A stretch of DNA of 64,000 nucleotides from a virus. Made by a program: the position numbers and the translations under genes. Under the pieces are notes generated by a model, which did not search any database, had not been told where the DNA came from, and worked only from the letters and a program-made list of their open reading frames with translations. The number at the start of each line of letters is the position of its first letter. The stretch's first letter is position 1. Location of the stretch: positions 1-64,000 of IMG/VR virus record IMGVR_UViG_3300049489_001113; one strand, 5' to 3'. Below, one piece after another: positions 11,715 to 51,327 of the stretch.

Positions 11715-12257
11715 CCACCCCGGTGTCCTGCGGCGGGCGAAGAGTTCCACCCGTGGGACGGGGCCGAGCAGCCCCTCGATGCGACGGCGCACCTCCTCCG
11801 GCTTCTCGGAGTGCGCACCCCTCGGCGCGAGCACGACCTGCCCCTGCGCCTCGGTGAGCAGAGGCAGCGGCCTGCCCCGCTTGCACGTGGTCCCCGCCAG
11901 CACCAGCTCCGTGGTCGGCTTCACGAGCGTGGGGCGCACGCCCTGCCCCTCGATGATCTTCCCGGCCTTGGTGGTCTTCACCCACACGTAGGCCACACCA
12001 CGGAAGTGTAGACCCCACGCCTTCATGACCTCGACCGCAGCGTCGAGGCGCGGGCACGTGGCCCACATGAAGAGCGCGCCGTTGGCGCCGAGCAGGTCTC
12101 GCACCGGCAGTGCCTTGAGCGCGTCATCCGACATCAGCTCGTAGTGCTTCCCTGCCGCCTGGTCCTTGTTGGGATCACCCCACATCATCCACGGCGGGTC
12201 GGCATACACGACGGAGAAGGTACCGGGCTCGAGCCCGTGGAAAGGCCAGGGGTTCAC
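11682..12257 (-). CDS. MT-A70 family adenine methyltransferase
   Basis: VVYADPPW, LFMWAT, WGL, WVKT, HSEKP, VELFARR..PGW. Confidence 0.92.
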   Translation of the reverse strand: MNPWPFHGLEPGTFSVVYADPPWMMWGDPNKDQAAGKHYELMSDDALKALPVRDLLGANGALFMWATCPRLDAAVEVMKAWGLHFRGVAYVWVKTTKAGKIIEGQGVRPTLVKPTTELVLAGTTCKRGRPLPLLTEAQGQVVLAPRGAHSEKPEEVRRRIEGLLGPVPRVELFARRRTPGWSAWGLELPPT

Positions 12258-16090: not shown

Positions 16091-16091
16091 G

Positions 16092-16397
16092 TCAGCCCGT
16101 CTTCCTCTGCTGCGCCTGAAGGACGGCAGCCTGTTGCATGACGGACGCCGCACGCATCTGCTGCGCGATCTGCATCTGCCGTCCGGTCACAGCCGCGGCG
16201 ACCTTCTGTACGAGCGCCTCGGTCGACGCCCGGTGCAACAGGTAGTCCACGTCGTGGACGTTCACGTCCCGCTTGGATTCTCCCGACTGCTTCACACGGA
16301 TGGTCCCGTCTTCGAGCATGTCGATGACGATGCCGAAAGCGACCTCCGGTGCCTTGGGCTGTGCGGTCTGCTGGTCCTGTTCGTTGGTCTGTTCCAC
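16092..16397 (-). CDS. Hypothetical protein
   Basis: AAGGGAG RBS; Gln-rich C-terminus. Confidence 0.6.
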   Translation of the reverse strand: MEQTNEQDQQTAQPKAPEVAFGIVIDMLEDGTIRVKQSGESKRDVNVHDVDYLLHRASTEALVQKVAAAVTGRQMQIAQQMRAASVMQQAAVLQAQQRKTG

Positions 16398-27808: not shown

Positions 27809-28543
27809 TTACTTCCAGTCGACGTCACCACCGTCCGAGTCGTCGGAGCCGCCCTCATCCTCGCGACCCTTCGACCGCTCCTCGTCGGGCTCGTCGGCCA
27901 TGCCACGGACGATGCGCTTCAGCTCGTCGTTGTCCTTCGGCTCGAAGACCTCGATCCATGTCTCCGTGGTCACGGCACCCCAGTCACGACCGATGTTCTC
28001 ACCCTTGTCGCCCTTCTTCTGCTTGGGCCACCACCTCAGGGTCTTGATCGTGTCCTCGCTGTACTTCTCCTCGGCATCGATCTGGTCGCCGGTGGAGTAG
28101 CTGAACCCAGCGCCGGTGCGCTCGACTTCGACGCGCAGGCCACGCAGACCACCGTTCTTCTCGCGGAGCTTCTTGAGGCGCAGCGCGGGCTTAGCCTTGC
28201 ACACGAAGAGGCGCACCTCGTCCTTGTGCTGGTTGCCCTTCTTGTCGGACCACGCGGTGTGATCGACGATGACCCACGCGTACATCTTGGCCGCCTGGTT
28301 CCCGGCCTTGCACAGCGGACAGTCCTTCCGCTTGCACGTGAACCAGTTCTGCCACCTGCCGTTGATCTTGACCTGGTGCTCGTAGTACGAGAATGGCAAG
28401 TCGGTCACGAAGGTGATCTGCGTGCTCGTGTTCGGGCGCATCCAGAACCGGAACGGGGTGAAGGACCCTTGCTTCTTGGCTTCCTTCTCCGCATCGTCCA
28501 TTCCCTCGCTGTACCAAGGGACGGCTGTATTCTCGCTCATCAC
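27809..28543 (-). CDS. Single-stranded DNA-binding protein (gp32-like)
   Basis: YEH...FTC..DCPLC; acidic C-tail ending DVDWK; next to the polymerase. Confidence 0.75.
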   Translation of the reverse strand: MMSENTAVPWYSEGMDDAEKEAKKQGSFTPFRFWMRPNTSTQITFVTDLPFSYYEHQVKINGRWQNWFTCKRKDCPLCKAGNQAAKMYAWVIVDHTAWSDKKGNQHKDEVRLFVCKAKPALRLKKLREKNGGLRGLRVEVERTGAGFSYSTGDQIDAEEKYSEDTIKTLRWWPKQKKGDKGENIGRDWGAVTTETWIEVFEPKDNDELKRIVRGMADEPDEERSKGREDEGGSDDSDGGDVDWK

Positions 28544-28617
28544 TACTCCTGTTGTTGCTTGCCCGTTCTACGTCGGGCTGGTTGGGTCAGACGGCGGCAC
28601 TGTGTCCACCAGCACCA

Positions 28618-28646
28618 TCAATAGCTGAGGACCGGTCCGCTGTCAA
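28618..28646 (-). promoter_or_regulatory. sigma70-like promoter for the SSB/pol operon
   Basis: TTGACA-N17-TATTGA on the - strand in the divergent gap. Confidence 0.45.
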
Positions 28647-28684
28647 GTGGGGTAGGATCGCGAAGTCTCCGTGTCCCCCAGGAG

Positions 28685-29050
28685 GTGCGCTTGAACAGGC
28701 AAGGTACGAAGATCTACACCGGCACGGTGGGCGCAGTGGGGACCTCCTACGTGCCCGTGACCGTCGCCGGTCTCCCAAGGGCGGGGTGGATCGAACGGAT
28801 CACGATCGAAGCCACGGCTGGCCCTGGTGGGGCGGCGAGGATCCTGATCCTCGATCCGACCACCTCCGACACCCTCGTCGAGTACGACGACCCGGACAAC
28901 CCCGGGGATCCGATCACCTTCCCCTTCGACGTGGGGGATACGGCGGTCTGGTTCGAGCGCGGCACACTCGCGCTGCTGGTGTCTGTGGCCTGCGACGACG
29001 GCACGAACGCCACGACGCTCTCCGTCTCGCTCTCGGTGCGCGCCCCCTGA
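28685..29050 (+). CDS. Beta-rich hypothetical protein, first gene of the + strand cassette
   Basis: AGGAGG RBS; all-beta composition. Confidence 0.65.
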   Translation: MRLNRQGTKIYTGTVGAVGTSYVPVTVAGLPRAGWIERITIEATAGPGGAARILILDPTTSDTLVEYDDPDNPGDPITFPFDVGDTAVWFERGTLALLVSVACDDGTNATTLSVSLSVRAP

Positions 29051-29074
29051 CCTGACGCACCAGGAGGAATTCGA

Positions 29075-30010
29075 ATGACGGAGTTACGCCGAAGTCCGCG
29101 GTCGGTAGGTTACCGACGCAGCCCGCGCCAGTATTCCAGGGGTGGAGGTGGCGGCACGGCCCAGGAAACCGCGACGTACGTTGAGATGGGCGCGGCGGAG
29201 TTCGTCGGAGAACTCATCGTCCAGGCTCCGGCCTTCACGACTCCGGATGCCCTGACGTTCGAGAGCATCGAGGGTTGGGGGGAGGTGGAGTCTCCTGCCA
29301 CGACCTACGAGGCGGCCGAATCCTACACACCCTCGGACCTCCTACTGCACTTCGATGGCGGTGACGGATCGACGAGCTTCGAGGACTCCTCTCTCGGCTT
29401 CTACGGTGATGGGGACAAGACCGTCACGACCTTCGGCGGGATCGCCCAGGCGGCATCCGCGGCTGTGTTCGGTGTCTCGGGGTGCATCTTCGACGGCGTG
29501 GACGACTACCTGAGTCTCGCGGACAGCGCGGCATGGGACATCCTCGCGAGCCCAGAGTTCTTCATCGAGATGCGCCTGAATCCGGACACTGGAAACCTCG
29601 CTGGGTCGAACGCGGCCATCTTCGCCTACCACTACCAGGACGCCAACAACCGCTGGATCCTGTACCACGACAACGACGGGAACTCCGGCAGCGTGACATT
29701 CAAGGTCATCTCGGCAGGTTCCACGGTCTGCAACGTCGTGGCTGGTGCCGGGTCGCTCGCGGAGGGCACCTACCAGACGCTCGCAGTCGAACGCTACAGC
29801 GGCACGGTCCGCCTCTTCGTCGACGGCGTCATTGTCGCGAGCGCGGCCTTTGCTGGAGCGCAGACGTTCACCGGCACGTTCTACATCGGGGCGGACCACA
29901 CCGGCACATCACGCTTCAAAGGTCAGATGGACGAGTTCGTTATTCGCAGGCCGTACTCGCCTGCGAACGGCGCCAACTACACCCCGGCCGTTGCCGCCTA
30001 CCTCGATTAG
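29075..30010 (+). CDS. Module 1 'A' protein: Arg-rich leader + LamG/ConA-like domain
   Basis: MTELRRSPRSVGYRRSPRQ; LLLHFDG..GST.F.DSS, FDGVDDYL, LFVDG, FKGQMDEFVI. Confidence 0.85.
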   Translation: MTELRRSPRSVGYRRSPRQYSRGGGGGTAQETATYVEMGAAEFVGELIVQAPAFTTPDALTFESIEGWGEVESPATTYEAAESYTPSDLLLHFDGGDGSTSFEDSSLGFYGDGDKTVTTFGGIAQAASAAVFGVSGCIFDGVDDYLSLADSAAWDILASPEFFIEMRLNPDTGNLAGSNAAIFAYHYQDANNRWILYHDNDGNSGSVTFKVISAGSTVCNVVAGAGSLAEGTYQTLAVERYSGTVRLFVDGVIVASAAFAGAQTFTGTFYIGADHTGTSRFKGQMDEFVIRRPYSPANGANYTPAVAAYLD

Positions 30011-30018
30011 GATGTTCC

Positions 30019-31080
30019 ATGCCTTCACTTCAGCAGACCTTCGACCTCACCCCGCAGACGACGCCCGCCACGGCGAGTGCGATGGGCGACCTGATCGACT
30101 CGATCAACACGCTCATCACGACCTACACGAACTGGCGTGTGCAGGCCATCGACGGGGCGAGCCCCAAGAAGTACATCAACCTGGCTCCTCCGCTCGGTTC
30201 TCCGATGGAGAAGATGCGGGTCCTGATCGCCGGTGACGTGACGACGCCTCCGAACGGGGCCCAGGTCAACTCCCCTCATACGGCGGTCGCGACCAACCAG
30301 TGCTACGTCGGTGTCGGTGTGGCGGCGACCGCAGGGGCCACCGCCCCCGATAACGCCTGGGATTCGGCATCGGCCCAGTTCACGGCCTTCTGGTCCAAGT
30401 ACGTCCGGGGTCCGACGACGACGCACTGGGACCGTGTCTGGCTCGTGGTGAGCGACGACATCCTGGAGCTGTGGACCTACAAGACATCGGACGACACGGT
30501 CCGCGGGTTCCGGGTTGGGGCCATCGGCATTGCCCCCACGACAGGAACAGGGCACCAGGGCACCACCCGTCGGATCCTCGGCGTGATGACCACCGGCACG
30601 TATTCGATCTCGAACGACTGGCACTACGAGGTCTCCACGAGCGTCGCCTACTGGATGAACTTCGCCAACGAGGACACGGTAGGGAATCGAGTCGCGCAGC
30701 CTCTCTGCTTCATCATCCACCCGTTGACCGGTGTGGCGACGCGTTGTGAGAGGCGGTCTGGCATCTTCACGGGAGAGCCGGAGGGATCCGGCGACCCACT
30801 TACAGCTACGAACCTCGAATGGAGCACGCCAGGGGCGTTCCCACGTCGGTTCTTCGATACTATCGCGCTGCATGGGTACGCGAATCTCGGTCCGAACATC
30901 CGGTTCGGATGGTTCAGGCAGTTCTACATGTACGGCAAGGGATTGGCTGGGCAGGTCGTCAGGGACTCGAGCAACAACGTCGTGGGGTATCTGACGTCGG
31001 GCTCGAGAGCCACGGCGTACCCAGCGACGATCACAAGCGACCAGGTGATGCTCACGGGCATCGAAGACGCGGTGGAGTAG
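30019..31080 (+). CDS. Module 1 'B' protein, putative virion structural protein (353 aa)
   Basis: Thr/Gly/aromatic-rich; paralogous to the other B proteins. Confidence 0.75.
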   Translation: MPSLQQTFDLTPQTTPATASAMGDLIDSINTLITTYTNWRVQAIDGASPKKYINLAPPLGSPMEKMRVLIAGDVTTPPNGAQVNSPHTAVATNQCYVGVGVAATAGATAPDNAWDSASAQFTAFWSKYVRGPTTTHWDRVWLVVSDDILELWTYKTSDDTVRGFRVGAIGIAPTTGTGHQGTTRRILGVMTTGTYSISNDWHYEVSTSVAYWMNFANEDTVGNRVAQPLCFIIHPLTGVATRCERRSGIFTGEPEGSGDPLTATNLEWSTPGAFPRRFFDTIALHGYANLGPNIRFGWFRQFYMYGKGLAGQVVRDSSNNVVGYLTSGSRATAYPATITSDQVMLTGIEDAVE

Positions 31081-31083
31081 GCC

Positions 31084-31347
31084 ATGCAGAAGATCACGAT
31101 CACGACAGACAGTGGCGACTGGTGGCTCGTCTTCGAGGCCGCGAATCGGATCATCGGCGCCGCCGGGAAGGCACGCGCCAAGGTCATGTCCAAGGACTTC
31201 AACGAACCGACGAGCATGGAGATCGTCCTGGACTTCTACACCAGCACGGTAAGCCCGAACGACGAGGCCGTCAGCATCGCCAACGACGGTCTCAGCACCT
31301 ACGGTGGTGCGCACCTTGTGACGGTCGCCATCGAGCCGGTGGAGTAG
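31084..31347 (+). CDS. Module 1 'C' small protein (87 aa)
   Basis: RBS and position in the module. Confidence 0.7.
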   Translation: MQKITITTDSGDWWLVFEAANRIIGAAGKARAKVMSKDFNEPTSMEIVLDFYTSTVSPNDEAVSIANDGLSTYGGAHLVTVAIEPVE

Positions 31348-31353
31348 TCCGCG

Positions 31354-32349
31354 ATGGCCGACCTCCGGCGAAACCCCAAAGCCGTAGGGCACCGGAGGTC
31401 TCCGAGGCAGAGTTTCCGGAGCACCGGCACGGGCTCACCCCCGTTGTACAGTCAGACTGTCCCGGATGTCACGGCGGGGCCGTACCTCGGATCTCCAGGT
31501 CCATTCACTGCGGGGCAAACCGGTGCGCCGGTCGAGCGGATCGCCGTAGCGGACCCGCTGCTGCAACCGGGACCGTTCCAGGTTCAGAGTGTGATCGGGA
31601 CCCCGTTGGAGCAGATCGCCACGGCGGACCCGCTGCTTCAGCCTGGGCCCAAGCGAGTGGATCAGACGTGGCACGAGCACGACTCGGACCTCTTGCTGCA
31701 CTTCGACGACGGGGAGGGTTCGGGCACCTTCATCGACGACTCTGTGGGTCTCGTTTCAGTAGGCGGGAAGACAGTCACCGCGAATGGAGGCATGGTTCAA
31801 AGAACGGCCTCGGCGGCCCTTGGTTCGACAAGCGGTGGCGAGTTCGACGGCACAGATGATTTCCTGAGCCTCGCGGACGATCCGGCGTGGGACATCCTTC
31901 AGGGCGGTGGAGACTTCTTCATTGAGGCGCGAGTCAAGCACGACGCCTTCGGCGGCGGCTGCTACGTCGCACACGCGGCCAGCGCCACGAACCAGTGGAA
32001 CTTCTTCCAGCGCACGTCGGTAGCGGGGGCCATCGGGTTCTATGTGGTTGTCGGTGGTACGCCCTACACGGTGCTCCAGGCAACCGGGACGATGAGCACG
32101 GGGACGTTCTACACCGTGGCTGTCGAGAGGTGGCTCGGGGTGGTGTACCTCTACATCGACGGGGTGATCGTAGCGTCAGGTGCTCTGACGAACACGGACG
32201 TGTTCACTGGCACATTGTACGTCGGCGGTGGAGGCGCAGGCCCGAGCCTGGACTGGTTCAATGGCGACATGGATGAGCTGCGCATCCAGCGAGGCCCCGG
32301 CCCCCGCGGTAGAAACTACACTCCGAAGACCGTGAACTGGACCCACTGA
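31354..32349 (+). CDS. Module 2 'A' protein: Arg-rich leader + 25-aa repeats + LamG domain
   Basis: MADLRRNPKAVGHRRSPRQ; ADPLLQPGP twice; LLLHFD, FDGTDDFL, FNGDMDELRI. Confidence 0.85.
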   Translation: MADLRRNPKAVGHRRSPRQSFRSTGTGSPPLYSQTVPDVTAGPYLGSPGPFTAGQTGAPVERIAVADPLLQPGPFQVQSVIGTPLEQIATADPLLQPGPKRVDQTWHEHDSDLLLHFDDGEGSGTFIDDSVGLVSVGGKTVTANGGMVQRTASAALGSTSGGEFDGTDDFLSLADDPAWDILQGGGDFFIEARVKHDAFGGGCYVAHAASATNQWNFFQRTSVAGAIGFYVVVGGTPYTVLQATGTMSTGTFYTVAVERWLGVVYLYIDGVIVASGALTNTDVFTGTLYVGGGGAGPSLDWFNGDMDELRIQRGPGPRGRNYTPKTVNWTH

Positions 32350-32358
32350 GAGGACACG

Positions 32359-33495
32359 ATGCCTGCACCCACGATGACCTGGAACCAGACGCCTATCGAG
32401 ACGTTCGCGAGTGGGATCACAAGTCTCAGTGACTTCTTCACGAAGCTCGACGCGCACCTCACGGCGTACTCGACTCTGTGGGAGACGAGCGTGCTCGACC
32501 CAGCGGGCACGAAGGAGTACCTGGAGATCAAGCGGCAGGCCGGGGTCGCTGCCGTCATGCAGAACTTCCGCATGTTCCTCTGTGGGAGCACGGCGGGCTC
32601 GAAGCCACCCACGGGGAACCAGGTCTTCCCGCACAGCAACAACAACACCACGACCGAGAGCACGGTCTTCATGTGCTTCGCCCCGGACGTAGGCGGCACC
32701 TTCCCCAACACCGGGCTCGATACGAAGTGGGAGACCGGGTACCCCTACGCGGGCGACGCGAACCCGTCGCAGATCCCGTACATCAAGGCGAGCCAGCGTC
32801 TCGGCGTCGACATCATCTTCGACCAGATGTACCTCTTGGAGTGCGAGGACATGCTGTTCGTGGTCCTGATCAGACGGTCGGACCAGAAGGTTGCGTTCTT
32901 CGGCTGCGGTGGGATGTTCCTGGCCCCGACGGTTGCTCTTGGAGATCCGATCCGCGGCGACGAGGTGGTCTGGGGTATGGTCTCGACGGCGGGTCGAGAC
33001 CTTGGGTCGAATGGTGGGTACAACATCCACGCCATCGAAGGATCGGGCACTGACCGAAACAACTACACACCGTTCAACGGACAGTTGTCGCAAAACGCCT
33101 CGACGCAGAACCGCCAGTCGCTGTGCTGCCTTCTGACACCCATCGGGCGAACAACGTCCACCGTCTCCGGTGGTCGCGTGTACAGGATCTACGGAACCAA
33201 CAGCTACCAGAACGAATTCATCAGCGGGAACGAAGATGAGAGTGGGTACTGGAACACCGTCGAGTACCTCGACGGATCGAGAGCCTGCGACCCCATCGCG
33301 TACCAGTACGTGGACCAGTCGAACCGCACTCGCATGGGCGAGCTGAGGCAGATTCACCCGGTGTGGGAGTCGCTGGCCCACAAGGAAGTACGCGACGCGG
33401 CGGGGAACCTCAAGGGCTACGACCTGTGTGGCCAGACCAGCTTCGCCGGTACGTCAGGCTACTTCTTCTCCAACGACCCGAACCCCGGACCCTGA
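32359..33495 (+). CDS. Module 2 'B' protein 1
   Basis: Close paralogue of 33499-34620. Confidence 0.8.
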   Translation: MPAPTMTWNQTPIETFASGITSLSDFFTKLDAHLTAYSTLWETSVLDPAGTKEYLEIKRQAGVAAVMQNFRMFLCGSTAGSKPPTGNQVFPHSNNNTTTESTVFMCFAPDVGGTFPNTGLDTKWETGYPYAGDANPSQIPYIKASQRLGVDIIFDQMYLLECEDMLFVVLIRRSDQKVAFFGCGGMFLAPTVALGDPIRGDEVVWGMVSTAGRDLGSNGGYNIHAIEGSGTDRNNYTPFNGQLSQNASTQNRQSLCCLLTPIGRTTSTVSGGRVYRIYGTNSYQNEFISGNEDESGYWNTVEYLDGSRACDPIAYQYVDQSNRTRMGELRQIHPVWESLAHKEVRDAAGNLKGYDLCGQTSFAGTSGYFFSNDPNPGP

Positions 33496-33498
33496 ACC

Positions 33499-34620
33499 AT
33501 GGCTCCTCCATTGATGACGTGGGCCCAGACGCCGATGGACGTGTTCCCCGCGGGGATCACCTCCGCCTCGGACTTCTTCGTGAAGCTCGCGGCGCACATC
33601 ACGGCCTACTCGACGTACTGGCAGACCTCGGTGCTCGACTCCGCCGGCACCAAACGGTACTACGAGATCAAGCGCAAGGGCACACCGGCAGCGGTGATCG
33701 CGAACGCGCGAATCTTCCTGTGCAGTGATGCGGCTTCGGGCCCCCCGAACGCGAACGTGATCGGGCCGCACAACAGCACGACGAACCCAGGCAACGTGGT
33801 GTTCGGATCGTTCGCGCCGAATGTGGGAGGCACCTTCCCCAACACCGGGCTCGACACGAAATGGTTGTCGGGTCTGCCATACGCAGGCGACGCCAACAAC
33901 GGCGGACTCGGTGGCTACGTGAGGTGCTCGCATCGCATGGGCGTCGATCACGTCATGGACGCCATGTGGATCATCGAGAACGAGGACTGCCTCTACGTCG
34001 TGACGATGCGCCGCTCCGATCAACTCACGAGCGTGTTCGGCATGGGCGGGATCTTCCAGGCCCCGACCGTGGGTCTCGGTGATCCTGTTCGCGGGGATGA
34101 GGTGGTCTGGGGTGTGATGACCACCGGGTACTGGTACCTGCACAACGAAGTGAACATGCACTACTCGCACGCCAGCAGCACCGCGCAATCCCGCAGTGCC
34201 GGTTTCGTCAACGGCCAGCTCTGCGACTCCGGCGAGAGGTACAGGCAGGGGATGATCTGGGCGATCAACCCGACGAGCAGGACCATCACGACGGGCTCGC
34301 CCATTCGGGTACTGAGGATCTACGGGGTCCACGACTTCGGGAACGAGGTCTCGGCCATCAACAACGGGAATTGGAACACGTCGGAGTATCCGACGGGGGC
34401 CAAGGCCGGTGACCCTGTGAGCTACTCGAAGGTGGATGGGGGGAGCCGATTCCGCCTCGGGTCCCTGCGACAGATCCGGGCCTTCCACGGCGGGCTCTCG
34501 CGCAGGGCCATCGCCAACGATGTCGGCTCTGTGAAGGGCTTCCTACTCGCCCCTTACCTCACGTTCGACGACAACCACGCTCTCCTGTTCAGCCAGGAAG
34601 CGAACCCAGGAGTTGGATGA
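33499..34620 (+). CDS. Module 2 'B' protein 2
   Basis: Shares VGGTFPNTGLDTKW and RGDEVVWG with the previous gene. Confidence 0.8.
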   Translation: MAPPLMTWAQTPMDVFPAGITSASDFFVKLAAHITAYSTYWQTSVLDSAGTKRYYEIKRKGTPAAVIANARIFLCSDAASGPPNANVIGPHNSTTNPGNVVFGSFAPNVGGTFPNTGLDTKWLSGLPYAGDANNGGLGGYVRCSHRMGVDHVMDAMWIIENEDCLYVVTMRRSDQLTSVFGMGGIFQAPTVGLGDPVRGDEVVWGVMTTGYWYLHNEVNMHYSHASSTAQSRSAGFVNGQLCDSGERYRQGMIWAINPTSRTITTGSPIRVLRIYGVHDFGNEVSAINNGNWNTSEYPTGAKAGDPVSYSKVDGGSRFRLGSLRQIRAFHGGLSRRAIANDVGSVKGFLLAPYLTFDDNHALLFSQEANPGVG

Positions 34621-34883
34621 TGGCAACAACGAACGTCAGCTTCCAGTGCACGTCGCAGTCCGACATGCCGTTCCAGTACGCCCTGACCGCGGCACAACTC
34701 TTTGTGGGGGAGGCGACGAAGGCGGGGCTCGTGGTGGACTCGGTGGACGAGAACCGCGAGACCGGGATCGTCTGGGTCCAGGTCTCCGAGAAGCCAGCGC
34801 CGGACTTCCTCACCACCGTCGATGGGGCACTCGAGGCAGCACTCGGCAGGTACCCGATCCAGATCGAAGCGCAGAGGGGGTAG
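34617..34883 (+). CDS. Module 2 'C' small protein (88 aa)
   Basis: ATGA overlap; AGGAG RBS. Confidence 0.7.
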   Translation: MMATTNVSFQCTSQSDMPFQYALTAAQLFVGEATKAGLVVDSVDENRETGIVWVQVSEKPAPDFLTTVDGALEAALGRYPIQIEAQRG

Positions 34884-34886
34884 TCC

Positions 34887-35189
34887 GTGGCCGAGTACCG
34901 CCGCCATCCGAAGTCGATCGGGTACCGCAGGTCACCTCTGCAGTCCTTCCGCGCGACGGGCAGCGGTGTCGACCCGTCCGCCGATCTCGCGCCGTGCCCC
35001 GAACCCGTGCTGGTGCTCGCGACGGAGGACACGGATACCTTCACGGCCGATCGCGTCGCCTACCAGGAGACCACCGCCGTGTACTTCAACATCGTGGGTG
35101 ATGCCCTGGGCATCAGGGACGGCGGGCCTGCCCCCGAAGCCTTCACGTCGGCGGGTGCTATCATCCCGCTCGGGAGTACCATCGTATGA
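34887..35189 (+). CDS. Module 3 'A' protein: Arg-rich leader, no LamG
   Basis: MAEYRRHPKSIGYRRSPLQSFR; ends FTSAGAIIPLGSTIV. Confidence 0.8.
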   Translation: MAEYRRHPKSIGYRRSPLQSFRATGSGVDPSADLAPCPEPVLVLATEDTDTFTADRVAYQETTAVYFNIVGDALGIRDGGPAPEAFTSAGAIIPLGSTIV

Positions 35190-35389
35190 GCTGCCCGAAT
35201 CCCAACGGTCCCCTCGTCATCGCGGATGGTCGCCTCACGGAGATGCGCTCGCTCGGAGGCGGTGTCGTGATTCCGAGCTTCACGACCGCCGGACAGATGA
35301 TCCCCGCCGACATCACCGACTCAGCACCGCCCTCACCCGGCTTCACCAGCGCAGGGGACATCAAGCCCCTCGGGAGCACCATCGTATGA
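35186..35389 (+). CDS. Module 3 second short A-type peptide
   Basis: Ends FTSAGDIKPLGSTIV; ATGA overlaps at both ends. Confidence 0.65.
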   Translation: MSCPNPNGPLVIADGRLTEMRSLGGGVVIPSFTTAGQMIPADITDSAPPSPGFTSAGDIKPLGSTIV

Positions 35390-36408
35390 GCCTGCCGAAC
35401 GTCAACTGGAAGAAGGGCAAGCGGTTCTGGGTGGCGGTCACGGACAACGTGCCACGTCGGTTCATGGACGCCCTGTACCTGGTCATGGGACCAGACACGA
35501 ACGTGGACCCCGCATCGGTGTCTGACCTCTACTACGACGACTCGGCACGCGTCTCCGGTGTAGGCAGTGCCGTCGGCAGCGTGAACAAGGACCAGTACGT
35601 GGGCGTCACCGAGGCCCTGTACTGGAGCTACGTCACGGGGGCCCTCAACCACCGCGGGATCATCGCGGGCCAGGGTACGGCGACCAAGAGCCCCACTATG
35701 GGTGTCAACGACAGCTTCGCGGCCAACCGCATCATGATGAACTGCACGAAGAATGCGGGCCCATTCACGACCTGGGATGCGGCCAACCCGTTCGGCGGAC
35801 AGAGCTTCGGCTACTGGCACCTGACTGGTGTGGTGGCAGCACCCGCCGTGATCGGTGCGGACTGGTATGAGTGCCAGGAGGCCATGCACATCGCGATCCG
35901 CACCACAGGTGGTGCGGACATGGGCGGGATGGGCGGAGCCATCACCGATCCGCAGAGCACGCTTGCCGCGGATGCGGAGAGCGATGGACGCAACTACGGC
36001 ATGATCACCGCCGCGGACGGCTTCAACACGGATTGGACGGATCAAGTCCAGATCCAATCCGGCTCTCTCGAGCGGGTCACGGAGCACCAACCGAGCAACG
36101 GGTCCAACCACGCTGGGATCCTCACGCCTGGTACGTCCTCGACCGAGACGCTGCGGCGCACCCAGGCGTACGCGAACCTCGGAGAGTCCTTCGGGACGAC
36201 CTACGGCGGTGCCATCGTGGGCTTCCTGGCGATCCCCTTCAGGCGCAGTGGTGACAACATCTTCCGGGGGAACTCGAGGCGGTGGGGTCCCACGAAGGCC
36301 GTGCCGTCCGGGGCTGTGTTCCAGAGCGGGGGCGCGGACGTGGCCTACGCCGGGTGGGCGAACAACATCTACAGCGTGGCCGGTTCGGCCTGCGCCTTCG
36401 CGGCATAG
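35386..36408 (+). CDS. Module 3 'B' protein 1
   Basis: Paralogue of 36418-37443 (WKK, TEALY, WDAA, YEC.EA, GAVFQSGG.DVAY). Confidence 0.8.
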   Translation: MSLPNVNWKKGKRFWVAVTDNVPRRFMDALYLVMGPDTNVDPASVSDLYYDDSARVSGVGSAVGSVNKDQYVGVTEALYWSYVTGALNHRGIIAGQGTATKSPTMGVNDSFAANRIMMNCTKNAGPFTTWDAANPFGGQSFGYWHLTGVVAAPAVIGADWYECQEAMHIAIRTTGGADMGGMGGAITDPQSTLAADAESDGRNYGMITAADGFNTDWTDQVQIQSGSLERVTEHQPSNGSNHAGILTPGTSSTETLRRTQAYANLGESFGTTYGGAIVGFLAIPFRRSGDNIFRGNSRRWGPTKAVPSGAVFQSGGADVAYAGWANNIYSVAGSACAFAA

Positions 36409-36417
36409 GGAGATCAC

Positions 36418-37443
36418 ATGAGCACCCTCGCAACGCTGCACTGGAAGAAGTACGCACGGGTCTCCGTGGCTCTCACGGCGAACGCGCCTGCCGAGTCCCT
36501 GGACGCGATGTGGACGAGGCTGGACCCGGCCGCATCTGGGTTCTACTACGACGGCATCACGGTCCGGACACCGGGCGTCACCGGCCCCACCTGGAGCCGC
36601 TATCAGAACGCCGGCCCTACCACGACGGAGGCCCTCTACAGCTCGGCCTTCCCGGCGGGCGGTGTCGGTGTCTGCATCGCTGGCCAGGACCAGGTCGCGA
36701 ACCCGGTGAAGAGTCCAACGCGGCGCACCCCCGACACCACGAACAGTGCGAACATCCTCATCGCGAACGTGGCAGCCAACGCGGGCGCCTTCGCGTCGTG
36801 GGATGCGGCTGCCGTGTTCGGGGCGAGCGCCCGGCACTTCAACTACTGGAAGTGGGCGACGATGGGCATCGCCACCACGGTCAACTTCGACATGTACGAA
36901 TGCGAGGAGGCGTTCGCCGTCGCTGCCTTCGCGGCAGGAGCCCCTGTCGGGCTTCTCATCGGGGCCATCTACGACCAGCACAGCCAGCTCGGGGCCGACG
37001 CCGAGGTGGGGGGTGCCTCCGCTGGTCGGGTCATGGGCATGGTGACCGGAAACGCAAGCATTGCAACCAATTTCCTGTCGACCAGCGATGTGCTCAACGG
37101 CAACAACGTCGGGCAGTTCATGGACCACCACACGACCGAGGGACAGAACCACAACGGGATCCTGATCCCCGGGCAGACCGGCATTCGAGTCGCCGACAAG
37201 TACGGGAACACGGCCTACGACGGCAACACCTTCCGTACCCTCGGCGGGATCAACGTCATGCAGACCGGCTACCCGTTCTTCGAGAGCCAGGGCTCTCTCC
37301 TTCTTGGGACCTCCCGCCAGAGTGGCCCCTGCCCACAGACCACCCTCGGGGCCGTGTTCCAAAGTGGTGGAGTGGACGTGGCCTACACGGCATTCTCCGG
37401 CTCCCACATCAGCGCCCAGCAGGCGTGGGCCCTGGCGGCATAG
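36418..37443 (+). CDS. Module 3 'B' protein 2
   Basis: Same shared motifs; GGGAG RBS. Confidence 0.8.
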   Translation: MSTLATLHWKKYARVSVALTANAPAESLDAMWTRLDPAASGFYYDGITVRTPGVTGPTWSRYQNAGPTTTEALYSSAFPAGGVGVCIAGQDQVANPVKSPTRRTPDTTNSANILIANVAANAGAFASWDAAAVFGASARHFNYWKWATMGIATTVNFDMYECEEAFAVAAFAAGAPVGLLIGAIYDQHSQLGADAEVGGASAGRVMGMVTGNASIATNFLSTSDVLNGNNVGQFMDHHTTEGQNHNGILIPGQTGIRVADKYGNTAYDGNTFRTLGGINVMQTGYPFFESQGSLLLGTSRQSGPCPQTTLGAVFQSGGVDVAYTAFSGSHISAQQAWALAA

Positions 37444-37452
37444 GAAGCCCAC

Positions 37453-37722
37453 ATGCGCATCCACGACACCGGGTCCGACAACTATCTCGTCGAGTTGATG
37501 CAGTCCCCGCTGGCTGTCGTGGAGCGAGCCCGGGGCGCGCTGTCCATCACCCACCCGGTCTCGTCTGTTGAACTGTTCGGTGGGCGCGCGAAGATCTGGT
37601 TCTATGAGAACCGCGCTGCTCTCGACGCGGACATGGTCGAACTCGCGGCACTGACCTACGAGAACGCTGCTCAGGTGGTCGAAGTCGACAACGATGGAAC
37701 CTGCGTGGACGTCACGCCGTAG
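37453..37722 (+). CDS. Module 3 'C' small protein (89 aa)
   Basis: RBS and position in the module. Confidence 0.7.
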   Translation: MRIHDTGSDNYLVELMQSPLAVVERARGALSITHPVSSVELFGGRAKIWFYENRAALDADMVELAALTYENAAQVVEVDNDGTCVDVTP

Positions 37723-37731
37723 GAGAAGAGA

Positions 37732-38124
37732 ATGTGGAACTGCCACCACTGCTCGAAGGCCGCCCTCGACACGGATGCTCGGTGCCCCCAGTGCGGAGCG
37801 CCGAGAGCCAGAAGCTCGCGGGCCGGAGGGTCTCCGGTGCCCGAGGCCGTCGCGATCAACCAGTGCACGAAGCTCAAGTTCGGTGACGGCAAGGCATTCG
37901 GCTACATGCGCTGGACCGAGGAGTTCGGCAGCGTGACGGACTCCCACCATCAGCTCGTGATGAACATGCGGGTGGAGCCGCCCGGTCTCGCCGAGCCCGA
38001 GGAGATGAAGCAACTCGGTGAGTGGGGCTGGGTCAAGGTCGCCCCGGGCCACTACCAGCGTGAACTGGAGCGAGCCCCGGTCATCACGTTCGAGGGTGAG
38101 AAGGCGAAGCATCTCCGGTTCTGA
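37732..38124 (+). CDS. Zn-ribbon hypothetical protein
   Basis: WNCHHC...CPQCG. Confidence 0.65.
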   Translation: MWNCHHCSKAALDTDARCPQCGAPRARSSRAGGSPVPEAVAINQCTKLKFGDGKAFGYMRWTEEFGSVTDSHHQLVMNMRVEPPGLAEPEEMKQLGEWGWVKVAPGHYQRELERAPVITFEGEKAKHLRF

Positions 38125-40437: not shown

Positions 40438-41000
40438 CAGCGCAACCCGAAGTCGCGGAGAATGACCGCGGTGGCTTCCTCGAGGCGCACCAGATCTCCG
40501 ACGTTCATGATCGTGGCGTCGGCCTCGATCGATCGCTGCTCCGTCTCCGAGGCGTGCCCGTCGCCGTCGTACCCGGGGCGAGACACACGCACCAACTTCC
40601 CTCCGATTGAGCGGATCATCTCCGCCTCGTTCGCAAACCACACATCCGGCACGAGCCACAGCCGCACACCCGCGTCGCCTTCGATCCTGCACCGCAGGTT
40701 CTTCACCCACACCTGCGGGTCGATGCTCCGCCCGACCTCGGTGCCGAGGAGCTGCATCAGTTGACGCGGGGTCTTGTCCCAGCGAGGGTCCACGACCTCC
40801 TTGTGCTTGGGGTTGTGCATCTGCGCGTGCGACAGGTCGAAGATGATCTGCGCCGCCTCCTTCAATGGGGCAGCGAAGTGCGTCACCTGCACGCCGTCAT
40901 CACCTGGCCGGTGCGTGAGCAGTTTCTTCGCGAGGCTGGCGAAGGTATCCTTGCCCGCCCCCTTGCTCCCAAGGATCCCGATCACACGAACGCTCATCAC
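40437..41000 (-). CDS. Deoxynucleoside monophosphate kinase
   Basis: GSKGAGKDT, FAAPLK, TPRQLMQLLGTEVGR, DVWFANEA, HASE. Confidence 0.9.
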   Translation of the reverse strand: MMSVRVIGILGSKGAGKDTFASLAKKLLTHRPGDDGVQVTHFAAPLKEAAQIIFDLSHAQMHNPKHKEVVDPRWDKTPRQLMQLLGTEVGRSIDPQVWVKNLRCRIEGDAGVRLWLVPDVWFANEAEMIRSIGGKLVRVSRPGYDGDGHASETEQRSIEADATIMNVGDLVRLEEATAVILRDFGLR

Positions 41001-42835
41001 GACACCCTCCCTTGCGCGAACAACCCGAGCGTACGGGGGAACGCGTCTGACAAGATCCGTTGCACGACAAGGGCGAACTGCCTGATCTCAAACTGCGCGG
41101 CCTCATCGGTACGCAGCGCGAGGAAGGCGACCCACCCACGCAGGTTCGACGTCGCGCGCATGCGCGAGTACCGGCCCACGGGAAGGATCACACGCGCGAG
41201 TTCCTTCGGTACCCCATCGGAGAGGGCCGACTGATAGTCATCCTCGAGCTGCGCGTAGCGGGCCACCAACTTACGGCGGTACGCCTCCGCCGAGACCGCA
41301 TCGAGTTCGCGCGCACCGTGGATGCGGTTGGCCTGCTTGTTCGAGCCCGTCGCGTTCACCGTCAGCCGCTCGACGGTCGGGACGTAGTTCACGTCCGGCA
41401 GCGGGGTGTACCTGGCCGACATCTCGTTGTAGCCGAAGGGAACCCTGTGGCGGTGCCACTCGCGGAACACGAAGATGGGTGCCTGAACCTCGACGGTGAT
41501 CCCCGCCATCTCGAACGGCGTGTTCCCAGAGAGGACAACTTTCCCCCCGCGTCGCACAACCAGTACCCCAGTGCGGGTGTTTGCGCAGTACACGGTGCCC
41601 TCGTATGGAACCCACGACGTATTCACACGGCTCTGATTGATCACTGGCTCCGTCATCCGCGACAAGAACATCATCCGGTAGAGACCAACGTCCGATCTCC
41701 CAACCTGAACACACTCCCCGGCGTGGATCGCGATGCGTTGAACGGCATCTGCGAGCGGCGCCGACATGGTCGTGTACTCCCAGGCTCCGCGCTTCTCTGA
41801 ACCGTCCGAGTTGCGCAACCCATCAAGCAAGGCAGCCGCATCATCAGCACCAAGGTCCATCAGGAAGTCTGGAATACACTTGTCTCCATCTGGTGTATAG
41901 AACCACCGCCGAAATGCGGAGGTCAGCCCGTCGGCGCGCACAACACACGAAGACAACTCGTCGCAGGCCCAGCCTACCCCCGCGCACACTTCCTTCAGGT
42001 ACGCGATCTTCCGCTTCTTCCGAAGATGGAACTGGATCGAGTTGCGAACGGTGCCGTCGTCACGCCCAGCGAACCCATCACCAAGGAAGAACCCAATCAA
42101 CCGCAACAGCTCGCGCGAATCGTCGTGCTGCGGGAACCATTCCGATAAGTCCACATATGACCGCTTGCGCCGTGCATGCTTTCGATAGCGCACCATCGAA
42201 CGGAACCCAAGCTCCTCCACGGTCTCCAGGCGCCATGGAGACCACACCTGTCGGTTCTCGCCAACCACACTCACCTTCGTCTGCACGTACATGCGGTGCC
42301 CCGGCGTTACGAGCAAGTCCACTCCGCCATGATCGACACGGTACATGTTCCCTTTGAACGGATCGGCAACGAGCTGGAGCGGGGCCTCATACACCAGGGA
42401 CTCCGCAACAGGGTCCCAGCAACCGAGCAGGTCATCCTTCCGTACGTCTGGCCACGTCACGAAACCGCGCCGAGTCAGAACCTCGGTCGCCGCATCGTAG
42501 CAGTGGTGTTTGTGCTCCCACAGGTAGCGAAGGAGCTTTTCATCACCGGGCTTCGCGTCTTCGATTGCGACGTGCGCGCCACCGCGTTCCGTCGGGCAGT
42601 GGGTGTGTGGTAGACGACCTGTTGTACTCGACACGCCGCACGAGCAGCGAACCTCGCCCCATCCCTGGAACCCCTTGTTCGTGCTCATTCGTGCGGCCTC
42701 GATGATCTGCTCCTCCGAGCCCCACATCTCGATGAGCTTCACGAATCCGTGGTCGAGTACGGGAATCGGCTCCTCGTACTTCTCCATCAACTGCGTCTTG
42801 TGCAAGTCCACCCTCATGTTGTCGTTCTCCCTCAC
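40997..42835 (-). CDS. thyX: FAD-dependent thymidylate synthase containing an intein
   Basis: VLDHGFVKL, AARMS, H|TPFE, PIFVFREWHRHR, NEMSARY, ELARVILP, AQFEIR. Confidence 0.95.
   Translation of the reverse strand: MRENDNMRVDLHKTQLMEKYEEPIPVLDHGFVKLIEMWGSEEQIIEAARMSTNKGFQGWGEVRCSCGVSSTTGRLPHTHCPTERGGAHVAIEDAKPGDEKLLRYLWEHKHHCYDAATEVLTRRGFVTWPDVRKDDLLGCWDPVAESLVYEAPLQLVADPFKGNMYRVDHGGVDLLVTPGHRMYVQTKVSVVGENRQVWSPWRLETVEELGFRSMVRYRKHARRKRSYVDLSEWFPQHDDSRELLRLIGFFLGDGFAGRDDGTVRNSIQFHLRKKRKIAYLKEVCAGVGWACDELSSCVVRADGLTSAFRRWFYTPDGDKCIPDFLMDLGADDAAALLDGLRNSDGSEKRGAWEYTTMSAPLADAVQRIAIHAGECVQVGRSDVGLYRMMFLSRMTEPVINQSRVNTSWVPYEGTVYCANTRTGVLVVRRGGKVVLSGNTPFEMAGITVEVQAPIFVFREWHRHRVPFGYNEMSARYTPLPDVNYVPTVERLTVNATGSNKQANRIHGARELDAVSAEAYRRKLVARYAQLEDDYQSALSDGVPKELARVILPVGRYSRMRATSNLRGWVAFLALRTDEAAQFEIRQFALVVQRILSDAFPRTLGLFAQGRVS
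41522..42502 (-). mobile_element. Contiguous intein with LAGLIDADG-type endonuclease (327 aa)
   Basis: CYDAATEVLT, VTPGHRM, LIGFFLGDG, LLDGLRNSDG, VYC...SGN|T. Confidence 0.92.
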
Positions 42836-48088: not shown

Positions 48089-50719
48089 TCACGAGTCCTT
48101 GATGCCGATGGCCTCTTCGAGATCCTCGACCTGGGACCGGGTGCGGATGTAGAACAGGTTCGCATCCACAACACCGTTGAACTCGACGTGCAGGAGCACG
48201 TGTTGCGGCTCGAGCCCGGAGACGGTGACAGGGGTGGTGAGGTCGATGGTGACCTCGCGGATTCCCGCACCCGCGGTGGTTGTCTCGCCCGAGTTCGTTG
48301 AGACGAGCGTGACAGAGCCGTCGTTCTCGATCTTGTAGGCGAGAAGATCCCACGAACTCGATGCGGTGCTCACGCCGAGGACGACGCGCTCGAGCGTCTC
48401 TCCCGGGTTCAGCAGGATCTGGAAGAACCCGATCGACGGTGCGGACACCGTCCCCTCGTAGAGGGCAGCCGGCCAGTAGGCCACGCTGCCCGGGGGGTTC
48501 ACCGACGTGTACTTGGCGGGGTTGCCAGGGGATGCGCCCGTCGGCAGCCACTCCGCGAAGGGAGTGGCCCCCGTCGCCTCGTTGCGGTTCCACTGGTCCA
48601 TGTAGAACATGCGACGGAGCTTGCGCGCGGAGGCGAACTTGTACCGCTTGTTGTTCCCGAGGGTGACGTTCTCCTGGAGTGCGACCTCTCCCGCGAGCAG
48701 GATGTCGGTGGCGAAGAGGGTGACCATCTGCCCACCCTCGTCTGCCTCGACGTAGGTGGATGCGTCCTTGCCGATGCGCGAGAGCGCGCCCGCACTGTCG
48801 AGGAACAGCCCGGCGTCACCACTCGCAAGCGAGAAGTTCACCTGCCCCGTTGTGGCGCTGAACTGGAGTAGATTCGCGCTGTCGTCGAACCAGAAGGTCG
48901 GGGACCCAAGGGAGCCGAACTTCACGTCACCGGAGAGGACGTGCAGCGAGGTGTCGCCCTGCACCACGTGCGTGCCGGTTCCGGTGAACCCGGCGATCTT
49001 CAGGCCGGCGAACCCGTTCGTGACACCGGTGGGTGCGGCCAACTCGACGACGTAGGCCGACGTGACATCTGCGCCGGCGTCCTTGGTGAGCTGGAATCGG
49101 AAGGCGTGCGCCTGGTTGTCCCCGTCGTTCGGGAACAGGCCGAACGTGAGATGCCCGATGTCGGTGCCGTTCTGGCTGTAGTTCGCGTTCAGCGTCAGCT
49201 CGGACAGGAAGTCCGCGGTGGCGCCCGCGTCGTCGGCGAAGAACTGGATCCACGCCTTGCCCTCGGCCTGGGTGGGGACGAGGAATCCGGAGAGCGAGGT
49301 GGTCACCTCCTCGGTGGTGGCGCCGAGGTACAGGTAGCCGTTGTTGCCCGCCTGCTGGCTGCGCGCGATGAGCGCGTTCGCGAACACGGCCGCCCCCCAG
49401 CCGGATCCGAAGTCGGTGCTTTTCCAGCCTGCCGCATCGAGGAGCGGGAAGGACGTGGCCCCGTCCCACACGTTGAGGTCGATGAAGGGGGACAAGGCGT
49501 TCGCGGCGAGGGCCGGGAAGCGGATGCCCTCCGTGCTCGTGCGGATGATCGGGTGCTGGTTCGCGGCGAGCGACGCACCGGGTCCGACGTCGTCGGCGAA
49601 CTGGATGTCCTTCCACTTCCCGCTCCCCAGGTCGAACTTCGACTTGAGGATGTGGGTGAGCGGCCCGAGCGGGGCCATCTCGTAGTGGCCCGGCGTCGTG
49701 TACACGATGTTCGCCGGCACGATCGTCGGGGCGCCAGCACCGGGCGTGATCGTGGCGATGTGGATCCAGTAGACCTTCTCCTCGTGTCCCTGCGGGGCGA
49801 GGTCCGGGTAGTCCGGCCGGTCGGCGCTCGTGGGGAGGTTCGCGCCGGTGCGGAAGATGCGGTGGAAGTAGCGGACGCGGAGTCGGTGCGACGGCTCCAG
49901 GAGCATCGTCGGCTCCTCGAGGTCGGGATCCTCCTCCATGTCCTGGTCCTCGACCCACACTCCGAGCCACACCTTCTCGACCTGCCCGTTCACGAAGGTG
50001 ACGCTGTTCGGCAGCACGAGGTACTCGTCGCCGATCGCCGGACCGCCGGCGCTGTAGGGGCCGGTGACCGTGAGGCGCGCCGAGGTGGGCACGGCGGAGA
50101 TCGTGTACGTGTTCCCAGCCTCCGCGCCGGTGACGAACCGCACGCGGGCGTGACGGTCGGTACCGTTGCCGACGCCGCCGGAGGGGGCGACCAGGTGCAG
50201 ACTGCCCGTTGCGGGGGTGAAGTCCTTGCTGTCGTCCTCGAACGTGGTGCCGCCGGGGAGGGCGGTGACCTTGCCGCTCGTGATGACGTGCCCCAGGTCC
50301 GAGTAGAGCCCGGCCGGTCCACGGGAGTCGCTGTCCTCGACGAAGAGGCCCTGCACCCAAGACGGGCCCCACATCACGTAGAAGTCGTTCGAGAGCCCGG
50401 CGGTGTGCACCCAGGGCCGCATCGAACCGGGGAACCAGGACGTCGGGGTCGCGGCCACGGTCGGCGCGTCGGCGGGCCACGTCTTCGTCGGGTCCACAGG
50501 GTGGACGAACTCGTAGAGCGCGTCATCGACCGTGACCTGCGTGGTGTCGAAGCCGATGAGCGTGTCGATGGCGCGCGACGTGCGCCAATCGAGCAGGTCC
50601 TGCAACTCGTTGATGTCGGCGTCCGTGATGGGCACACCCTGCTGGAGCAGCATGCGCAGGTAGCTCTTGTTCGCGTCGAAGGTCTTCCGCGAGACGTTGG
50701 CGGTTGGCGTACCCATCAC
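48089..50719 (-). CDS. Tail fibre/baseplate-attached protein with DUF6519-like N-terminus
   Basis: SRKTFD..K.Y...LQQGVPITDADINE; VWLGVW....EEDPDL.E. Confidence 0.75.
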   Translation of the reverse strand: MMGTPTANVSRKTFDANKSYLRMLLQQGVPITDADINELQDLLDWRTSRAIDTLIGFDTTQVTVDDALYEFVHPVDPTKTWPADAPTVAATPTSWFPGSMRPWVHTAGLSNDFYVMWGPSWVQGLFVEDSDSRGPAGLYSDLGHVITSGKVTALPGGTTFEDDSKDFTPATGSLHLVAPSGGVGNGTDRHARVRFVTGAEAGNTYTISAVPTSARLTVTGPYSAGGPAIGDEYLVLPNSVTFVNGQVEKVWLGVWVEDQDMEEDPDLEEPTMLLEPSHRLRVRYFHRIFRTGANLPTSADRPDYPDLAPQGHEEKVYWIHIATITPGAGAPTIVPANIVYTTPGHYEMAPLGPLTHILKSKFDLGSGKWKDIQFADDVGPGASLAANQHPIIRTSTEGIRFPALAANALSPFIDLNVWDGATSFPLLDAAGWKSTDFGSGWGAAVFANALIARSQQAGNNGYLYLGATTEEVTTSLSGFLVPTQAEGKAWIQFFADDAGATADFLSELTLNANYSQNGTDIGHLTFGLFPNDGDNQAHAFRFQLTKDAGADVTSAYVVELAAPTGVTNGFAGLKIAGFTGTGTHVVQGDTSLHVLSGDVKFGSLGSPTFWFDDSANLLQFSATTGQVNFSLASGDAGLFLDSAGALSRIGKDASTYVEADEGGQMVTLFATDILLAGEVALQENVTLGNNKRYKFASARKLRRMFYMDQWNRNEATGATPFAEWLPTGASPGNPAKYTSVNPPGSVAYWPAALYEGTVSAPSIGFFQILLNPGETLERVVLGVSTASSSWDLLAYKIENDGSVTLVSTNSGETTTAGAGIREVTIDLTTPVTVSGLEPQHVLLHVEFNGVVDANLFYIRTRSQVEDLEEAIGIKDS

Positions 50720-51327
50720 TGCACCTCGAACGTGAACCGGATCGACCGGTCGATGGAGATCGAACTCGTCTTGTCGATCCTACTGTGGACGATCCAGTCG
50801 GTCATCAGGCCGGAGTTCGCGACCCCCGTGGCGTTCCCACTGAACACCCCGAACTCGCGGAGCGCGGAGCCATTAGCCTCGCCGAGGGCGAGCGTGGTGT
50901 CCACCTGGATGACGTTCGACGGGGTCGGATCGATGTTGACCCCGGAGACGGGGTTGCGGAAGGTGATGGCCACCGCGGGGATCGCCTTCCGGAACACCTC
51001 CGTGGTGAGAGTGGTGTCGGCGAAGGGCTGGGTCGGCGCTGCCGAGTCCCAGGCGGGCAACCCGGTCCCGAAGGCGAAGTACAGGAACCCCGTGTAGCCC
51101 ACGCGGTTCTTGCACAGCGAGGCGAGGAGCACGGCGTTCGTGTTCTGCACTTGGTTGTGCTGCCAACCAGTGTCCTCGACGATGTTCCCTCGCTCATCGC
51201 GGATGATGTCCCGCCACTCCCCCTTCATGCGAAGGAGTCCCTTCGTCGGATCGATTCCCTCCACGACACGACGGACAGGTTCCCGCACGGGGGGAGGTTG
51301 CAAGAGGATCGATGGGTCTCGGTGCAT
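50716..51327 (-). CDS. Tail-fibre-associated (collar-like) protein
   Basis: AFGTG...TL..EVFRK...GEANG..LREFGVF...IDKT. Confidence 0.7.
   Translation of the reverse strand: MHRDPSILLQPPPVREPVRRVVEGIDPTKGLLRMKGEWRDIIRDERGNIVEDTGWQHNQVQNTNAVLLASLCKNRVGYTGFLYFAFGTGLPAWDSAAPTQPFADTTLTTEVFRKAIPAVAITFRNPVSGVNIDPTPSNVIQVDTTLALGEANGSALREFGVFSGNATGVANSGLMTDWIVHSRIDKTSSISIDRSIRFTFEVQ

Follow-up and report, generated by a model that had tools for sequence, protein, structure and literature searches.

Three repeated cassettes in a + strand operon

We analysed the first 64,000 nucleotides (64 kb, the window) of the 100,478-bp IMG/VR record IMGVR_UViG_3300049489_001113, which comes from an uncultured metagenomic myovirus (estimated completeness 97%, G+C 65%), and concentrated on a + strand operon at 28685-38124 that carries three cassettes of A, B and C genes. 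Its 14 tightly packed open reading frames (ORFs) run in the order S, A1-B1-C1, A2-B2-B3-C2, A3-A3'-B4-B5-C3 and N1, with inter-ORF gaps of -4 to +24 nt, and each has a G+C content at third codon positions (GC3) of 0.77-0.89 in its own frame. An earlier note on this DNA had described the cassettes as a + strand operon in the replication region; its coordinates and gene order proved right, and N1 is added here as a 14th coupled ORF. The operon is set between replication genes of the - strand (12-28 kb and 38-45 kb), which encode a DpdA-like transglycosylase, an exonuclease, a UvsX-like recombinase, helicases, PolA, a single-stranded DNA-binding (SSB)-like protein, a primase, a thymidylate-synthase-domain protein and DnaB. 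The operon is flanked by the SSB-like gene (27809-28543) and the PolA gene on one side and by the primase and DnaB genes on the other, all on the - strand. The baseplate genes of the contractile tail (baseplate wedge/J-like, P2-I-like and a 'tail fibre network' component) lie on the - strand from 48 kb onward; an 876-aa protein is encoded at 48089-50719, a BW3TFN-like protein at 50716-51327 and the P2-I-like protein at 51337-52158. No close relative was found among 50,697 deposited phage genomes, PolA reaching a best identity of only 28%, and megablast with the operon against these records returned no match. The features of the locus are as follows.

28544-28684, +, upstream intergenic region: 141 bp, divergent, between the - strand SSB-like gene and S, presumed to hold the operon's own promoter.
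28685-29050, +, S: first gene, 121 amino acids (aa), acidic (isoelectric point, pI, 4.3), beta-rich, GC3 0.87.
29075-30010, +, A1: 311 aa, leader (residues 1-24), acidic linker and LamG domain (about 140-290).
30019-31080, +, B1: brick protein of 353 aa, belonging to the 43-sequence family described below, with 24-25% identity to B2 and B3.
31084-31347, +, C1: 87 aa, acidic, pI 4.5, GC3 0.89.
31354-32349, +, A2: 331 aa, leader, Pro/Gly linker with a 25-aa tandem repeat, LamG domain.
32359-33495, +, B2: brick protein of 378 aa, its predicted model matched to JBD30 8rk3.
33499-34620, +, B3: brick protein of 373 aa, tandem duplicate of B2 (49% identical).
34617-34883, +, C2: 88 aa, acidic, pI 4.2, ATGA-coupled to B3.
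34887-35189, +, A3: 100 aa, leader and linker without LamG, C-terminus FTSAGAIIPLGSTIV, GC3 0.83.
35186-35389, +, A3': 67 aa, without leader, two further FT[ST]AG motifs, partial duplicate of the A3 end.
35386-36408, +, B4: brick protein of 340 aa, second subfamily, its predicted model matched to JBD30 8rk3.
36418-37443, +, B5: brick protein of 341 aa, paralogue of B4 (35% identical).
37453-37722, +, C3: 89 aa, acidic, pI 4.4, GC3 0.81.
37732-38124, +, N1: 130 aa, last coupled ORF, 9 nt after C3, with an N-terminal CxxC...CxxC zinc ribbon.

The B proteins form one family in two subfamilies

By BLAST, the five B proteins fell into two groups, B1-B2-B3 (23-49% identity) and B4-B5 (35%), with no link between them, and thin profiles of the two groups did not connect B1-B3 with B4-B5 either. 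A profile search with B1-B3 through 1.8 billion representative proteins returned 55 distant relatives of about 300-360 aa. When a 43-sequence family alignment of these relatives was compared with the B4/B5 profile, hhalign joined the two subfamilies with a probability of 99.2% (E 1.7e-19 over 287 columns), and B1-B5 are therefore true paralogues of one ancient family, as the earlier note had proposed. Predicted models of both subfamilies have one fold, so that the modules do not carry B proteins of unrelated folds.

The genome contains these five B genes and no further copies. In a maximum-likelihood tree, B2 and B3 were sisters (100/100), and B4 grouped with B5 and a protein from another assembly, P0072 (98/94). 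Apart from the single B1, the B genes come in two pairs, both of which arose by duplication. P0072, encoded on a 2.5-kb Logan contig, is 75% identical to B5, so public reads include a sister phage that carries this brick, at least. None of the 43 family members had a relevant Pfam or PHROG match, and tblastn with B2, B5 and a B-B fusion protein described below found nothing in the 50,697 phage records. B2, B5, P0004 and a four-sequence alignment, each used for pattern scans of IMG/VR, returned no relative. In a word-based search with B2 through 5.8 billion proteins, matches came from its own genome only.

The predicted B fold is that of JBD30 tail fibre proteins

Structures of B2 and B4 were predicted by AlphaFold2 (AF2) with family alignments, at a predicted local distance difference test score (pLDDT) of 78 and 77 and a predicted template modelling score of 0.84 and 0.81, respectively. 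In a structural search of all representatives, the B2 model matched chain 8rk3_c of the JBD30 baseplate with Z 16.0 and a root-mean-square deviation (rmsd) of 4.8 over 270 of 317 residues, the next best match having Z 5.0. The B4 model matched 8rk3 with Z 16.6 and rmsd 4.5 over 261 residues (next best Z 4.5). This baseplate was the only solved-structure match of both subfamily models, and its chains 8rk3_K and 8rk3_G were also the top Foldseek matches of both (E 2e-5 for B2), while sequence identity in the structural alignments was 8-13%. Thus, the models show that the B proteins have the predicted fold of JBD30 gp47/gp48 over nearly the whole chain. Foldseek comparison of the B2 model with BFVD also returned a 'virion structural protein' of phages FoX4, KL1 and AchV4, as well as several paralogues within single phages.

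JBD30 is a Pseudomonas phage in which gp47 and gp48 were solved in the virion as 'tail fibre forming proteins' (PDB 8rk3; Valentova et al. 2024, PMC11445458). The two have similar folds and pair as heterodimers, three of which are stacked in each of three bent lateral arms, and these arms attach to the baseplate and embrace or bind the type IV pilus (PMC11445458). Residues 2-74 of the distal tail protein form an extended N-terminal arm that wraps round gp47-gp48 (PMC11445458).

The operon resembles this arrangement in several respects. Besides the predicted fold, the protein sizes are comparable (305-317 aa in JBD30, 340-378 aa for B). Adjacent diverged paralogues occur in both: gp47 and gp48 work as a pair, and here B2/B3 (49% identity) and B4/B5 (35%) lie side by side, with B1 single. 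In JBD30 the bricks are held on the baseplate by an extended peptide arm of another protein, a role that the linker of the A proteins may play here. There are also differences. JBD30 has one gene pair, whereas the operon has five B genes in three cassettes; the JBD30 bricks are held by the N-terminal arm of the distal tail protein, whereas the operon encodes separate putative adaptors with an Arg-rich leader and LamG domains, and it adds small acidic genes after the bricks. JBD30 is a siphophage with these genes inside the tail module, between the tape measure and the distal tail protein; in contrast, the operon belongs to a phage with a contractile tail and lies outside the tail module on the other strand.

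Since the only solved relatives of the B fold are baseplate-attached receptor-binding arms, we propose that the operon encodes host-attachment appendages of the virion, made of JBD30-type bricks that have been multiplied and relocated. We give this reading a probability of roughly 55%, the contacts and roles of the individual proteins being assigned by analogy with JBD30. The same analogy would also accommodate a single composite appendage, in which each cassette supplies one segment of the same arm, in succession a B1 dimer, B2-B3 and B4-B5, with a separate A protein as the clamp of each, and in which the leader serves assembly rather than docking to a common socket. The JBD30 arm holds exactly three gp47-gp48 heterodimers (PMC11445458), the three brick units here share one co-transcribed and translationally coupled operon, and module 3 is without a LamG tip, all of which would suit such an arm. 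However, one strongly conserved leader on three proteins fits equivalent attachment better than different positions in a stack, and the relatives described in the next section work with one B gene, so we consider a composite arm unlikely.

Single-copy relatives in other phages

The earlier note had asked whether the gene order is kept elsewhere while the number of modules varies. A B4/B5-type protein was encoded at 26 IMG/VR loci and a B1-3-type protein at five JGI loci, each with one copy within 10 kb (loci L004 and L009-L034 are single units; L037 holds a B-B fusion). At high-GC loci, the usual order was large proteins (590 and about 1,090 aa), a gene for 145-201 aa, B, an ORF of 59-70 aa, a holin-like gene and an endolysin gene. 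In the loci read for context, large fibre-like proteins typically preceded B, among them a collagen-like one in L025; a collagen-like protein is encoded a short way upstream of B in an AT-rich 87-kb phage. In these loci, the small ORF following B was typically 59-70 aa long and started within 12 nt. The stop codon of the upstream gene overlapped the B start as ATGA at 12 of 18 distinct loci, and the junction ...GGNACCRTCGTATGAGCCT... between these two genes in the relatives was nearly the same as that between A3' and B4. Recurrence of this coupling and junction indicates that the upstream gene, B and the small downstream ORF form an old unit with varying module number, which thus recurs in unrelated phages as one module instead of three. 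The neighbouring genes of the relatives have nothing else in common with this phage, as expected if the brick unit is a mobile host-range module.

The junction itself, ...GG(N)ACC(A/G)TCGTATGAGCCT..., comprises the upstream stop, the B start and a Shine-Dalgarno box; it occurs at 35170-35195 and 35370-35395, and before B in L010, L022, L031 and L033. It is almost identical among these sites even though the B proteins are only 30-35% identical, an unusually strong conservation for a signal of translational coupling.

The single-copy units therefore share with the operon the protein family, the coupling to an upstream gene and the small ORF directly downstream. Unlike the operon, they hold one module per locus, which usually closes a fibre block and precedes the lysis genes; their upstream genes are without leader and LamG, and their neighbours are not similar to S, A or C. 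In agreement, none of the S, A and C proteins matched any ORF of the related loci at E up to 1.

L037 is a phage-like contig of 100.7 kb that was binned with a Myxococcales genome. It encodes a 663-aa protein that is a tandem fusion of two B domains, which is consistent with brick domains working as a pair. On the same contig, a 194-aa protein encoded upstream (9062-9646) and a 65-aa protein encoded directly downstream (12002-12199) have a common N-terminal module of 59 residues (58% identity, E 7e-24), so that another repeated N-terminal element flanks brick genes there.

The A proteins share a basic leader and carry LamG domains

The N-termini of A1, A2 and A3 follow one pattern, M-x-[ED]-[LY]-R-R-x-P-[RK]-x-[VI]-G-[YH]-R-R-S-P-x-Q-x-x-R, and a six-frame scan of the 100-kb genome found it exactly three times, at these N-termini. 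Compared with the leaders of A1 and A2, that of A3 has 59-63% identity. The leader has a charge of about +5 over 24 residues, and the remainder of each A protein is acidic. In pairwise comparisons, 60-67% of the identical leader residues used different codons, which argues that purifying selection, rather than recent gene conversion, has preserved the peptide. Both the common Arg-rich leader and the LamG domains of A1 and A2 had been recognized in the earlier note. LamG (PF13385) scored 57.1 bits (3e-15) in A1 and 44.9 bits (1.7e-11) in A2, above the gathering cut-off of 27.6 bits, and the profile detected no such domain in A3 and A3'. PHROG matches of A1 and A2 fell on the LamG regions of virion structural, tail-fibre and baseplate-wedge proteins. 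In matching above the curated threshold, A1 and A2 are like the known phage LamG/concanavalin-A-like proteins (PF13385; phrog_3545, 24074, 701, 24534 and 13163). Those differ in having LamG embedded in proteins of 340 to 6,100 aa, whereas here it forms the C-terminal half of a leader-bearing protein of 311-331 aa.

A1 and A2 are 38-42% identical along their whole length. The linker of A2 contains a 25-residue tandem repeat (31521-31574 and 31596-31649 in the DNA), and A1 aligns to one full and one degenerate copy of it. A3' is 64% identical to the C-terminus of A3 over 25 residues, the corresponding DNA repeat being spaced 200 nt, and A3 and A3' together contain three FT[ST]AG motifs. These motifs are not accounted for by the ribosome-binding site and ATGA overlap, and constitute our remaining lead for a B-binding peptide.

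With its 100-aa A3 without LamG and the 67-aa A3' that partially duplicates the A3 end, module 3 could be taken for a unit with a split and truncated adaptor, left over from an old duplication series in which some units are dead and fewer than three devices are made. All ORFs are nevertheless intact and retain coding GC3 and tight coupling, B5 is conserved in another assembly at 75% identity, and relatives of the B4/B5 subfamily also have short upstream genes without LamG. We therefore regard such decay as very improbable. The GTG start of A3 lies within an imperfect 29-nt inverted repeat at 34849-34926 (72% complementary, with a loop of 20 nt), which could form a hairpin over this start, yet is no better than chance pairs nearby.

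The small proteins

S, the candidate shared socket of the earlier note, had no match in Pfam, PHROG, PADLOC or NCBIfam, and comparison with the small proteins encoded upstream of B in relatives was not significant (hhalign E 0.09). Its AGGAG box abuts the GTG, and the start is possibly the TTG at 28691. C1-C3, which the earlier note had proposed as chaperones or caps, matched no family in Pfam, PHROG or NCBIfam, chaperone families included, and hhalign against the small ORFs downstream of B in relatives gave nothing. The Atlas model of C2, of low confidence, resembles small ferredoxin-like alpha/beta domains. N1 matched PF13240 at 4.9e-4, under the curated cut-off; it may be a regulator or unrelated to the cassettes, and its membership in the system is uncertain.

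Proposed mechanism and the evidence against it

By analogy with JBD30, B2-B3 and B4-B5 would be heterodimers and B1 a homodimer. The cognate A protein would act as the adaptor, its extended, repeat-bearing linker holding the bricks as an analogue of the JBD30 wrapping arm. The 24-residue leader with its +5 charge may anchor all modules at a single, shared acidic site of the particle, most likely at the baseplate periphery, and the C-terminal LamG domain of modules 1 and 2 would provide an added carbohydrate-binding tip. The small acidic C proteins may serve as assembly helpers or caps, and the phage could display up to three different binding devices. The contacts, the particle site and the simultaneous display are what we infer from JBD30. 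In its boldest form, the leader would be a universal plug for any adaptor-brick module at the same acidic site, which would allow devices to be added, swapped and multiplied by gene duplication outside the tail operon, with three devices displayed at once, two of them lectin-tipped; this full version seems doubtful to us.

Several observations weigh against virion appendages of this kind. The link to JBD30 is at the level of fold in predicted models: the family hidden Markov model found no JBD30 match among PDB sequences at E up to 10, and none of the 43 family members gave a PHROG link to gp47/gp48. The leader is without precedent in the databases searched. A degenerate DNA pattern scan of IMG/VR returned two chance matches, both out of frame, and the leader profile searched against 5.8 billion proteins matched A3 itself as the sole hit. 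No similarity among C1, C2 and C3 was detectable by BLAST comparison or hhalign, so that the 'C class' of the earlier note stands by size (87-89 aa), acidity (pI 4.2-4.5) and position only. The language-model look-alikes of S were viral clusters without names (111-126 aa) and hence no informative relatives. The nearest tail gene (- strand) ends at 48089, placing the operon about 10 kb from the tail module and on the opposite strand; on L037, the B-B fusion cluster lies between helicase and ligase/ribonucleotide reductase (RNR) genes. Because both the operon and the fusion cluster sit among replication genes, late expression of the operon cannot be assumed. Finally, the products of the genes upstream of B share a conserved C-terminal tail, ...G[ST]x[IV][VA]; its reading as a B-binding peptide was considered and dropped, since the tail coincides with the Shine-Dalgarno box and the ATGA overlap.

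The regulatory sequences did not help to time expression. No sigma-70-like site was found in 28544-28684, which also had no motif in common with other upstream regions, and a promoter/terminator scan together with a search for words common to upstream regions gave nothing usable. Convincing inverted repeats were not found in the operon region, and thus there was no sign of an invertible switch.

The location of the operon among replication genes on the opposite strand, and of the relative's B-B gene among DNA-metabolism genes, would also fit products that are not virion parts. Bricks might then act in the infected cell or be released at lysis, for example to modify the envelope, bind glycans or block superinfection, with the leader targeting nucleic acid or an acidic host component. 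Such a use would agree with the assignment of gp47 to the nitrilase hydrolase superfamily by the authors of the JBD30 study (PMC11445458) and with the GC3 of A1 and A2 (0.77-0.81), somewhat under that of the tail genes (about 0.9). On the other hand, the only solved relatives are virion parts, and most relatives lie beside fibre and lysis genes. There was no match to a Pfam enzyme family, none of the 10 operon proteins scanned with PADLOC matched known defence or counter-defence systems at E up to 0.01, and NCBIfam profiles matched no operon protein. As read from the sequence, no hydrophobic stretch follows the leader, which is hence not an export signal. A role outside the virion therefore appears distinctly improbable. 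Taken together, we retain the virion-appendage reading. The earlier note had already read the operon as a virion appendage or receptor-binding system; that proposal keeps its footing in the homology of the B proteins, in their predicted fold, which is that of solved baseplate-attached arms, in the gene order that recurs in unrelated phages and in the purifying selection on the leader, and loses its label 'undescribed' and its treatment of the C proteins as one family.

Other features of the window

Three genes of the - strand outside the operon deserve mention. A patatin-like phospholipase (54402-55271; PF01734, 7.8e-15) is encoded inside the tail/baseplate block and may be a virion-borne or lysis-associated lipase. 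A 505-aa protein (14636-16153) matches phage queuine tRNA-ribosyltransferase (DpdA-like) families, which points to 7-deazaguanine modification of the phage DNA. In a 612-aa protein (40997-42835), the thymidylate-synthase match is confined to residues 439-604, and the N-terminal ~430 aa are without match.

Discussion

Phages CBA120 (tailspike proteins TSP1-4), G7C and PhiK64-1 carry several binding proteins per particle by means of conserved N-terminal anchoring modules and have a broad or multiple host range. Anchors of the CBA120 type are folded domains of trimeric beta-helix tailspikes and are encoded inside the tail module. The operon differs from these systems in using globular bricks and LamG adaptors, and its common element is a 24-residue basic peptide. 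The building block itself is already known, the B fold being of the JBD30 gp47/gp48 kind (8rk3, Z 16.0/16.6), and the system is therefore not 'undescribed', as the earlier note had called it. What is new here is that the unit is triplicated, that separate LamG adaptors bear a unique common basic leader, that small acidic partners are present, and that the genes lie outside the tail module in a phage with a contractile tail.

The first brick-type fibres came to light in 2024, in one siphophage. The family to which they belong is widespread, no member found here bears a functional name, and it can be multiplied into arrays. If the docking and tethering model is true, it would provide an annotation rule for hundreds of 'hypothetical' genes beside tail-fibre and lysis genes, and an easy point of entry for engineering the host range of phages in laboratory systems. 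Should the products prove absent from virions, the brick fold would have a further, different use. The short common leader could be a portable docking tag, and the operon illustrates in compact, natural form how duplication of a small adaptor-brick-helper unit may equip a phage with several devices for host binding.

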